From IMG/VR virus record IMGVR_UViG_2534682161_000017, positions 1 to 28,791 of that record: a stretch of DNA of 28,791 bases, one strand, 5' to 3'. Positions 12,001 to 15,000 of this stretch are shown here, one piece after another. A program made the position numbers. This DNA is from a virus. Lineage: Duplodnaviria; Heunggongvirae; Uroviricota; Caudoviricetes. Position 1 is the first letter of the stretch; every line of letters begins with the position of its first letter.

Positions 12001-15000
12001 TCGTCAGCCAGATATGTAATGACTACTGCCATGTTGACCTCCGATGATTGACTTTGGCGGTGACGCGCCGGGTGCTTATCTTCCGGTTGCCGTCGTGCAG
12101 CTGCACTTCACGTCACCCCAAAGCCAACTACTCTTTGGTTCCCGCATTTCGGCGGGACAATCCCATCAATGTTAAAGAGCCTGCCAATCTGTTCCGTTTG
12201 GCTACCAGCTTCCTGCTGATGGCTTAAAGATAACTTAGGTTATAGGTGTGGTCAATAACCTAATTTATATTTTGTGGTAAATAAGTTATAAGTGATGGAT
12301 AACAAAGGTATTTTATTTTTGTAAATGTTGCTGATTGATTGGTGTTTGAGGGCTTGCGTGCTGGGTGAAGGTGTTACCTTTGGCTTGATGCTTGTCTATG
12401 ATGAGGATGGTTGATTGGATGGTGAACGGCAGGGAAAGAAAAACCCGGCGCTGAGGCCGGGTGTTTTTAGTCCTTTCTGTTGCTTAGCATTTCGTCGATT
12501 TCTAAGTCAATACGATATTGATCTATTGATTTTCTCTCGTTTGGGGTTGGTATTTTATACTGTTCAATTAGATCTGTTGTGTATTTTATTTCATCTAATG
12601 TGATTTTTATATCAGAGAGAATCTCTTTTATATCAATTAGATGCTCTTCTTCTTTTGCGCGATTAGAGCTATGTTCAATCATTTGAGATAGCTTTTTGCT
12701 AATGCTTAGCAAAACAAAAAGAATGATGACCAAAACAACAACAAAAACTATCAGAAATTCCATTATCCCTCCGCACTTCCGTAAGTCTTCTTCTGATTAT
12801 CGGTTACCAACTATGAGACGACCAGAATACTCTGCCAATAATCCTTACGGTTTCATGAAATTCATCTCTATCCATTACTTCATCCGGGTACTCTTCGCGA
12901 TTTATTGATCTGATTATCACCGATGTAGGGGTGGCGATTAATGTTTTTACTCGTAACAAATCAGACTGGCAAATAGCGTAGGTTTTACCATCTCTGATTG
13001 TGGTATCTTGCGTGTTAACACCAACAACATCGCCATCGTGAAGCGTAGGTTCCATGCTTTGCCCTACAACCCTAACTAGCTTGGCTGATCTTTCAGATAC
13101 TCCCATCTTTTTCAGATAGTGCTTTCTGAAAACCAAAGAGAACTCCGATGATTCCTCTAGCTCGCAGCTACCGCTTCCAGCTGAAAGCGAAACGTTAAGA
13201 AGAGGCAACGCAACAAACTCGTCATCGTTTCTTTTAATGTCTTCCCATACCACAGCTTTTAAAGATGACTCACGGACATTGGATGGTTCTTCATGTGCAC
13301 CATCCCTCATTTCACCAATACCAGAACTAAGCCATTCAGGGCGCACTTTTAAAGCATTGGCTAATTCAACCATCTTGCGAGATCCGTTTGTTTTACCGGA
13401 CGACATCTTCTGTATGGCTGGCTGAGATATTCCAACCATGTCTGCAAGCTGTGATTGTGATACCCCAGCTAAGCTCATGGCTGCATTTAGTCTTTCTGCG
13501 AATGTTTTCATACCCACAAATCTATAACTACGGTTATCCAAAGTAAAATAACAAAGGTTATTGCTATTTTTTATAACTTGAGTTATCTTTGGTTATAATC
13601 AATGACCACAAGAGGTATGCTCATGAATTTAGTAATTCAACGAGCCTTGAAAATTGTCGGTAGCCAAAAGCGCCTTGCCGACAAGTGTGGTGTAACGCAG
13701 CCAGCAGTACACAAATGGCTGAAAGGCGGATTGGTCTCTCCAGAGAAAGTTACCGCCATCGTTAACGCCACTGGAGGGCAGATCAAGGCTTACGAAATTC
13801 GCCCCGATTTGCCACACCTGTTTCCAAAACCGAATCAGGCAGCATAAGTAACACCGCTCTTTAACAGTCATGGTCCTCATTCCCGCCGAAATGCGGGAAT
13901 ACAACGCGCATAAGTTGATGCGCATAACTTCTTATTTGTTAAGGAAATACTTACATATGGTTCGTGCAAACAAACGCAACGAGGCTCTAAGAATCGAGAG
14001 TGCGTTGCTTAACAAAATCGCAATGCTTGGAACTGAGAAGACAGCGGAAGCTGTGGGAGTTGATAAGTCGCAGATCAGCAGGTGGAAGAGGGATTGGATT
14101 CCAAAGTTCTCAATGCTGCTTGCTGTTCTTGAATGGGGCGTCGTTGACGACGACATGGCTCGATTGGCACGACAAGTTGCTTCGATTCTCACCAATAAAA
14201 AACGCCCGGCGGCAACCGAGCGTTCTGATCAAATACAAATGGAATTTTAACAACATCCAACGAGGTAATTATATGCGAAACAAAGGCTTTAATCCACCTG
14301 ATACACACAAAGAAGCTAAGCGTTTGCGCTTCCTTCGTTCCATTGATGAAAGAACTCAAATCTCTTTTGTGAAAGTTGCCAGAACTGAGCTTCTGAAGGC
14401 TGAGGCGAGGGCGTTGCTCCCGTCTCTACCAAAAGAGGAGGGATATACGTTCATTCCAAACGCATTTCTGGAAAAGCTTCTCAAAGAAGACATATCCGTA
14501 AGTCAGTTTAACGATGTTCTTAAGGTCTTTCGTCAAGGCAGGTAGTTATGAGCAATACAGCAAAAATCTACGATTTCAGCGCCGCACACGAGCGCAGGAG
14601 CAACAGGATGGAGAACCAGAAAACTGGTTACATTCCGTTGTACCGGAGCATTCTGAAACAGTCATGGGCGAAAGATGTTTATCTTCGCACCCTGTGGGAA
14701 AACCTTCTCCTGAATGCCGCCAGAAAGCCATACAAAGCGAATTTCAAAGGTCATGAATGGCATCTGCAACCCGGTCAACTGGTTGTGACAGCAGCTGATT
14801 TAGGTCTTCAGTTATGCGACAGGCATGGCAAGCCGGCAAGCCGTGATCAGGTTGAGCGGATGCTTCAGGTTTTTGTGAAAGAGGGGATGATCACCATTGA
14901 TGGAGAGAAGCAAAAAGGTCGTGTGATCACCATCACAAATTACCATGAATACGCTCAAAAAATGGACAATTCACCCGCACATGAAGCCGCACAAACAACC

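Follow-up and report, generated by a model that had tools for sequence, protein, structure and literature searches.

ATAAC-N4-GTTAT palindromes as the predicted shared operators of CI and Cro in a 434-like lambdoid immunity region

Introduction

In phages λ, 434 and P22, the CI repressor and Cro share their operators as a rule. The operators of phage 434 are 14 bp in length and have conserved outer bases, and in λ the −10 hexamer of pRM is TAGATT, with a leaderless cI start. Among the Shiga toxin (Stx) phages, 933W has 15-bp sites, three in the right operator region (OR) and two in the left operator region (OL), and H-19B has four OR sites according to a review (PMC8065619). The repressors of H-19B and 933W have a common C-terminal domain (CTD) (PMC3202840). 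The present analysis concerns the immunity region of a λ-like E. coli prophage in the IMG/VR virus record IMGVR_UViG_2534682161_000017, a stretch of 28,791 nucleotides that is referred to here as the window, and in particular a set of palindromes of the form ATAAC-N4-GTTAT that flank its repressor gene.

These palindromes are predicted, with a probability of roughly 0.9, to be the operators shared by the CI and Cro proteins of the prophage. They make up the standard lambdoid operator set of an apparently uncharacterised immunity group; neither the six operator sequences nor the motif was found described in the full texts searched, most subscription journals being outside the coverage, and the one hit was a paper on S. 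aureus with no bearing on the subject. Judged from sequence, the architecture works like that of λ, the domain type of the repressor and the operator length are like those of 434, and the region belongs to neither immunity type.

Operators and promoters of the immunity region

The segment from 11.7 to 14.3 kb of the window is a lambdoid immunity region. Divergent genes for a repressor with helix-turn-helix (HTH) and S24 peptidase domains and for a small Cro-type HTH protein are separated by a 112-bp gap, in which three dyad sites about 2.3 helical turns apart lie over divergent promoters. A second cluster of matching sites lies over pL, upstream of an N-type antiterminator gene. The genes, operators and promoters that form the switch are as follows.

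12804–13511, minus strand: cI, encoding a repressor of 235 aa with Pfam matches to Peptidase_S24 (1.4e-17) and HTH_3; PHROG repressor family
13623–13847, plus strand: cro, encoding a protein of 74 aa with a YdaS/P22_Cro-type HTH; helix TQPAVHKW
13524–13537: OR3, nearest cI, ATAACTACGGTTAT; perfect ATAAC-N4-GTTAT in the pRM spacer, with a 1-base overlap with the pRM −10
13548–13561: OR2, ATAACAAAGGTTAT; perfect, with a 1-base overlap with the pR −35 and directly abutting the pRM −35
13573–13586: OR1, nearest cro, ATAACTTGAGTTAT; perfect, filling the pR spacer, its last 3 bases being the first 3 of the pR −10
12230–12243: OL1, ATAACTTAGGTTAT; perfect, filling the pL spacer, with a 3-base overlap with the pL −10
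12255–12268: OL2, ATAACCTAATTTAT; one mismatch and one weak half, 25 bp from OL1, with a 1-base overlap with the pL −35
13561..13589, plus strand: pR; −35 TTGCTA (13561–13566), 17-bp spacer, −10 TATCTT (13584–13589)
12227..12255, minus strand: pL; −35 TTGACC (12255..12250), 17-bp spacer, −10 TATCTT (12232..12227)
13519..13547, minus strand: pRM; −35 TTTACT (13547..13542), 17-bp spacer containing OR3, −10 TAGATT (13524..13519)

The first-pass annotation had described three near-perfect palindromes at a spacing of 24–25 bp between cI and cro. All three are in fact perfect, they begin at 13524, 13548 and 13573, and their centre-to-centre distances are 24 and 25 bp. The recurrence of the motif at OL, over the −10 and −35 of pL, is borne out for OL1 and OL2; these two sites are the only ones in register, and what had been counted as a third is a distal weak site that is considered below.

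The perfect motif occurs four times in the window, each time within one of the two regulatory gaps, compared to an expectation of 0.01 from 100 dinucleotide shuffles, none of which reached four. Sites with two or fewer mismatches number 23 (9.2 expected), and sites with at most one also occur outside the operator regions, as at 16523. The density of half-sites (ATAAC or GTTAT) per 100 bp is 7 at OR and 5 at OL, and the maximum elsewhere is 3.

The promoter hexamers are our own reading of the sequence, with verified coordinates; for pL, which is conserved in relatives, a promoter scan agrees. At both pR and pL, the proximal site (OR1 or OL1) fills the spacer and supplies the TAT of the −10 hexamer. 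In all relatives examined, the pR −10 is built as the TAT of OR1 followed by NNT (TATCTT, TATCTT, TATTAT, TATATT and TATAAT). The pRM −10 is placed 7 nt before the cI ATG, and a TAnATx hexamer is kept 5–7 nt before that codon in relatives; the cI mRNA is probably leaderless. The cro gene is preceded by a ribosome binding site, AAGAGG, at 13610–13615, and its start agrees with the annotated start in relatives. The position of OR1 is kept in SH2026Stx1, PA28 and the loci L007, L013, L015, L018 and L028, and OL1 recurs in SH2026Stx1, PA28, L013, L015, L018 and L028. The layout of sites and promoters is also found in relatives from Entomohabitans, Kluyvera, Hafnia, Symbiopectobacterium and Xenorhabdus.

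The recognition helix and the operator half-site

The N-terminal domain (NTD) of the window CI is a 434-like HTH in which helix 3, SQPAIQK, spans residues 29–35. In phmmer searches against PDB chains, residues 5–67 matched 434 repressor chains with E values from 1.3e-7 to 4.4e-7, and the domain matched 434 Cro at about 1e-5; no λ CI chain was among the PDB matches. The alignment register sets CI residue n against 434 residue n−2, by which Gln30 corresponds to Gln28 of 434 and PAIQK (31–35) to QSIEQ. Gln30 does not vary in an alignment of 27 sequences, and every half-site variant has A at operator position 1. CI residues 31–35 covary with operator positions 2–4. Taken together, the invariant Gln30/A1 pair and the covarying residues fit the view, suggested by homology, that the first residues of helix 3 read the outer half-site as in 434.

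The CTD carries the residues of a LexA-type self-cleaving S24 domain, namely Ala111-Gly112, Ser152 and Lys189, of which G112, S152 and K189 are invariant in the same alignment. Since these residues are kept, RecA-dependent induction is expected.

Relatives were collected by a scan of one genome per species, which gave 80 loci encoding relatives of the repressor. Five of them, from Entomohabitans, Kluyvera, Hafnia, Symbiopectobacterium and Xenorhabdus, have the helix SQPAIQK, TQPAIQK or SQPAIAK at repressor identities of 38–74%. Each has three ATAAC-N4-GTTAT sites at approximately −74, −49 and −25 from the cI ATG, together with an OL pair downstream of cI. Where the helix differs, the three-site architecture is unchanged and the half-sites differ as well: loci with SQAAIQK have ACAAC-N4-GTTGT, loci with [AS]QPSVWK have ATAGC-N4-GCTAT, and loci with AQSSVNK have ATCGC-N4-GCGAT. 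The replacement of Pro by Ala at residue 31 accompanies T2 to C (ATAAC to ACAAC), the change of AIQK to SVWK accompanies A4 to G (ATAGC), and SSVNK accompanies ATCGC.

A motif-free count, in which every perfect 5-N4-5 palindrome within 120 bp upstream of cI was taken, returned ATAAC in 13/13 arms at five SQPAIQK loci, ACAAC in 17 of 21 arms at 21 SQAAIQK loci, ATAGC in all three arms for AQPSVWK, and ATCGC in all four for AQSSVNK. Control stretches within cI gave counts of 0 or 1. The helices of Cro run parallel to those of CI, with [ST]QPAVHKW accompanying ATAAC, TQ[QA]AV[YQ]KW accompanying ACAAC, KQPSVWAW accompanying ATAGC, and [SA]QSTICDW accompanying ATCGC. The Kluyvera repressor (L013, 47% overall identity) combines an NTD and helix of the window type with a different CTD and keeps ATAAC sites; proteins of this kind place the specificity in the NTD. 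The earlier proposal that the palindromes define the immunity specificity of the prophage thus gains support from sequence, as the half-site covaries with the helices of both CI and Cro over about 80 related loci on a fixed architecture.

The left operator region

OL2 has a weak half-site, ATAAA or ATAAT in place of ATAAC, in most relatives examined, which suggests that the weakness is selected and is not decay. The weak outer half was located at 12255–12268 of the window and at positions 873 of L001, 2018 of L002, 5010 of L013, 3841 of L015 and 4938 of L018, a range that takes in E. coli as well as Kluyvera, Hafnia and Symbiopectobacterium. Beyond OL2, two further elements are present.

12285–12289: lone half-site GTTAT, within a degenerate 14-bp site (12276–12289), between OL2 and the distal OL site
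12299–12312: distal OL site, ATAACAAAGGTATT; one consensus half and one weak half, 44 bp from OL2

Together they form a pair of outward-facing half-sites, GTTAT-N9-ATAAC, at 12285–12303. The pair is kept in 5/8 genomes examined, these being the window, SH2026Stx1, PA28, Kluyvera (L013) and Symbiopectobacterium (L018). Each half, joined to a degenerate partner, would make up a site, and the two sites would be centred 21 and 44 bp from OL2.

The distal site had been regarded in the first-pass annotation as a degenerate third copy with one base missing. It is indeed OR2 minus one T, but it lies 44 bp from OL2. In relatives, a strong half combined with a weak one is conserved at this place, which does not agree with a recent deletion. 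An alternative that has to be taken seriously, though it is doubtful, is that the element is no working operator and represents a relic of immunity recombination or an AT-rich upstream element of pL. The element lies outside the 24–25 bp register, its right half, GTATT, is an HK620-type half-site, and its flanks, CAAAGG..TATTTATTTTT, are common to HK620. The weak half is also variable, being GTATT, ATATT, GGAAT, GGGAT or GAAAT, but it keeps the consensus outer G and T in most relatives. Moreover, the window, SH2026Stx1, PA28 and the Kluyvera, Hafnia and Symbiopectobacterium relatives (L013, L015 and L018) all have an intact ATAAC half, whereas HK620 has AATACAAAGGATATT, with a half-site of its own, at the homologous position. 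As the strong half tracks the resident immunity type in this way, selection by the resident repressor is indicated and a real but weak site is favored over a dead relic.

It is tentatively proposed, at a little under even odds, that the family represents a natural series of specificity swaps on a fixed 434-like scaffold and promoter layout, and that the OL layout conserved across genera, with its weak OL2 half-site and its distal GTTAT-N9-ATAAC pair, may be a looping or autoregulation device distinct from the OL3 of λ.

Alternative explanations

As pR, the promoter scan ranked another candidate higher, namely TTTATA-18-TATAAT, the −10 of which is at 13594–13599. If this were the true pR, the palindromes would still be operators, and an additional weak copy could act as a functional fourth operator.

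13583–13596: weak fourth OR copy, low confidence, TTATCTTTGGTTAT; 2 mismatches, overlapping OR1

This arrangement is unlikely. The downstream promoter does have the top score in the region, 10/12, and the GGTTAT of the fourth copy (13591–13596) is kept in SH2026Stx1, Stx1a_10051 and PA28; a review also attributes four OR sites to H-19B (PMC8065619). However, PA28 and SH2026Stx1 have TATGCT and TATAAG, respectively, in place of this TATAAT, whereas the −10 derived from OR1 is conserved in all of the relatives and has the same arrangement as that of pL. The fourth copy, for its part, is kept in the E. coli relatives and not in the distant ones, being absent from L007, L013, L018 and L028, and the parallel to H-19B is weakened by a repressor of another family, one with the CTD of 933W, to which the window CI is unrelated. 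Since the centre of the fourth copy is 10 bp from that of OR1, simultaneous occupancy of both would be impossible.

It is very improbable that the palindromes serve only one of the two regulators, CI or Cro, and that its partner recognises different sequences. The two proteins belong to different Pfam HTH families, HTH_3 in the case of CI and YdaS_toxin/P22_Cro/HTH_3 in the case of Cro, the latter also falling in the PHROG repressor family, and binding by either one is inferred. On the other hand, their helices are alike (SQPAIQK in CI, TQPAVHKW in Cro) and vary in step within the family, and a second repeated motif was not noticed in the 112 bp that separate cI from cro, where no dedicated repeat search was run.

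The notion that the palindromes arose by chance in AT-rich promoter sequence, or that they are bound by an unrelated host or phage factor, is scarcely credible: while a high AT content of the intergenic regions and a likeness of the half-sites to −10 hexamers (TATAAC / GTTATA) speak for it, the four perfect sites far exceed the shuffled expectation, the half-site and the helices of CI and Cro vary together across genera, and the controls within cI are nearly free of palindromes.

Several points weigh against the assignment of the palindromes as shared operators whose specificity follows the helix. A Pseudoalteromonas relative with the helix SQVAVMK has both ATAAC and ACAAC palindromes, and loci with SQPSIWK show ATAAC half-sites of poor symmetry; helix and half-site accordingly do not correspond one to one in every case. 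When 35 sites of the window and seven relatives were tallied, G was absent from position 6 and the flanks were unconstrained; the counts at positions 1–5 are partly circular because the sites were picked by their match to the motif. The assignment of pR is not unique, given a better-scoring TATAAT 10 bp downstream. Finally, no binding or expression data for the immunity type of the window were found in the literature.

Proposed operation of the switch

From the shared-operator assignment, the switch may be considered in terms of the following model. Dimers of CI would bind each palindrome through the 434-like HTH, one helix 3 (SQPAIQK) to each ATAAC half-site. CI at OR1 and OR2 would block pR, and CI at OL1 and OL2 would block pL, keeping N and all lytic genes off. 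From OR2, which is set against the weak −35 of pRM, CI probably activates pRM, and OR3, which lies over pRM, may serve either in negative autoregulation by CI or in shut-off by Cro. Induction would proceed by RecA-stimulated self-cleavage at Ala111-Gly112 through the Ser152/Lys189 dyad. The immunity specificity would reside in half-site positions 2–5 and in residues 31–35 of helix 3. The order of site occupancy, the activation of pRM, cooperativity and looping between OL and OR cannot be read from sequence and are inferred.

Comparison with described immunity types

The window was compared with the immunity regions of λ, 434, 933W/H-19B, P13374/BAA2326 and HK620, and none of them matches. With 434 it shares a homologous NTD, a 14-bp operator that is conserved in its outer bases and varies at its centre, and three OR sites. 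The counterpart of Gln30 in 434 (Gln28), the A at operator position 1 and the similarity between the recognition helices of CI and Cro extend the likeness. The half-sites are different, with ATAAC and a 4-bp centre in the window and ACAA-N6-TTGT in 434, as are the helices, SQPAIQK compared to TQQSIEQ in 434. Cro differs as well, since the window protein belongs to the YdaS/P22_Cro family and is no homologue of 434 Cro. An imm434 specificity was rejected: the NTD is of the 434 kind, but neither the operator nor the helix is. The window immunity and 434 should be heteroimmune.

The likeness to λ is one of arrangement. The order of cI-OR-cro and N-OL is the same, and in both there are three OR sites 24–25 bp apart, a promoter-proximal site on the −10, a second site at the −35 hexamers, and a pRM with TAGATT near a leaderless cI. 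A λ-type cII with a TTGC-N6-TTGC box is also present, as are the S24 self-cleavage residues including Ala111-Gly112. The operators had been described as different from the 17-bp operators of λ, which is correct: they are 14 bp long and unrelated in sequence, and 434 offers the better structural comparison. The CI NTD is 434-like in the window, OL consists of two in-register sites and distal weak sites, and orf98 stands in place of rexAB. With neither 17-bp operators of the TATCACCGC type nor a λ CI NTD, an imm-λ assignment was rejected.

HK620, a P22-like coliphage, resembles the window in having a homologous nutL/pL scaffold, with about 86% identity over window positions 12100–12320, and annotated OL1–3 and OR1–3 sites at the same positions with 24/25-bp spacing. 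P22-like prophages also carry the window immunity in strains H19 and MFDS1019527. The half-sites of HK620 are nevertheless AATAC..GTATT, and its CI and Cro are unrelated to those of the window (E values of 0.002 and 0.015, over short stretches). The HK620 immunity type is ruled out by these differences in half-sites and CI, the pL/nutL scaffold alone being shared. Between 12100–12229 and 12230–12320 of the window, a shared leader gives way to operators of another specificity, which puts a mosaic joint right at the operators.

The Stx phages 933W, H-19B and BAA2326/P13374 likewise have lambdoid switches in E. coli. The OR sequence of 933W differs from that of the window, and its repressor matches the window CI by BLASTP at an E value of 0.002 over the HTH alone, the CTD being unrelated. 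The 933W and H-19B immunity types were rejected for want of repressor homology and of 15-bp operators. An H-19B type, suggested by the weak fourth OR copy, was rejected in particular because the H-19B repressor has the CTD of 933W, to whose repressor the window CI is unrelated; furthermore, the prophage that carries the region in strain H19 is P22-like and lacks stx. As for BAA2326/P13374, footprinted sites hold ATAAC and GGTTAT words, but the repressor is unrelated (E value of 0.26) and OR is devoid of ATAAC-N4-GTTAT. Since the window repressor is unrelated to those of 933W/H-19B, P13374 and HK620, the published operator studies of Stx phages do not cover it.

Relatives of the immunity region

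The Stx1a-converting phage Stx1a_10051 has 98.8% identity to the window over the 1.8 kb queried (12100–13900). Over cI-cro, the identity is 94% for SH2026Stx1 and, at the DNA level, 78.7% for PA28 and a set of Stx1a-converting phage records. In PA28, the half-sites of OR are kept and the central 4 bp and the spacers are changed, giving ATAACCACGGTTAT, ACAACAATTGTTAT and ATAACTCATGTTAT, of which ACAACAATTGTTAT is the homologue of OR2. Upstream of N, both PA28 and SH2026Stx1 keep a pair of OL sites at a spacing of 25 bp, in which OL2 again has a weak outer half, despite having different genes between cI and N.

Among 5426 complete E. coli genomes, 164 have a match, in every case chromosomal, and 98 of the 5426 have one that covers at least 80% of the queried 12200–13650. 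Strain H19, known as the classical host of Stx1 phage H-19B, has the region at 98.6% identity in a separate P22-like prophage (L004, NZ_AP027165.1, 3160478–3201927), in which the stretch from Q to the lysis genes is free of stx. Strain MFDS1019527 also has the region within a P22-like prophage that lacks stx genes.

Other features and neighbouring genes

The remaining features of the immunity region are listed below.

11727–12032, minus strand: N-like antiterminator gene (PHROG, 3e-36), first gene of the pL operon
Between N and the left operator region: nutL/pL leader of about 200 bp, with about 86% identity to HK620, mEpX2, HK140 and HK630
12443..12462: bidirectional intrinsic terminator, ending the cI-orf98 transcript; equivalent to tIMM, which is annotated at the equivalent place in HK620
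12467–12763, minus strand: orf98, encoding a small protein with a hydrophobic N-terminus; phrog_18389, function unknown
13957–14250, plus strand: cII, λ-type
13966–13979, minus strand: cII box TTGCGTTTGTTTGC, of the form TTGC-N6-TTGC, at pRE

The orf98 gene is located 3' of cI and is presumably co-transcribed with it from pRM. With cI on one side and the bidirectional terminator on the other, orf98 would be expressed from pRM in the lysogen; in λ, this is the position of rexAB. Other genes are found at this position in PA28 and SH2026Stx1.

Four further genes of the prophage were noted outside of the switch.

18060–18782, plus strand: Ant/KilAC-type antirepressor gene in the nin region (phrog_63, 1e-97)
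10136–11158, minus strand: open reading frame of 340 aa in the pL operon, rich in Glu, Lys and Ala, with long repeats of low complexity such as AEAKAKAE and REAEEKAR
14548–15222, plus strand: gene for a replication-initiator-like protein (O-like/DnaD-like) with a repetitive stretch rich in His and Ala, AHEAAQTTAH...AHESAHEAAQTTAH
15491–16867: gene for a DnaB-type helicase, following the O-like protein in place of a homologue of λ P

The antirepressor offers a possible second means of inactivating a repressor, one that is independent of cleavage. In strain MFDS1019527, an IS3 element splits the homologue of the 340-aa reading frame, which has a TolA-like annotation there.

Significance

The ATAAC-N4-GTTAT motif provides a sequence-level definition of one immunity group. 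Its members include P22-like prophages of O26:H11 and other E. coli, as well as Stx1a and other Stx-type phages of the Sepvirinae (Stx1a_10051, SH2026Stx1 and the PA28 family). Phages that agree in both helix and operators are predicted to be homoimmune, so a resident prophage that lacks stx could repress or exclude an incoming Stx phage. By the same token, an Stx prophage could be held by the repressor of its neighbour, which would bear on both the spread of Stx phages and the induction of toxin.

The covariation across the family also constitutes a compact data set on the evolution of HTH specificity. If the relationships between helix and half-site are causal, they would amount to a simple and testable recognition code that may serve in the design of orthogonal immunity switches.

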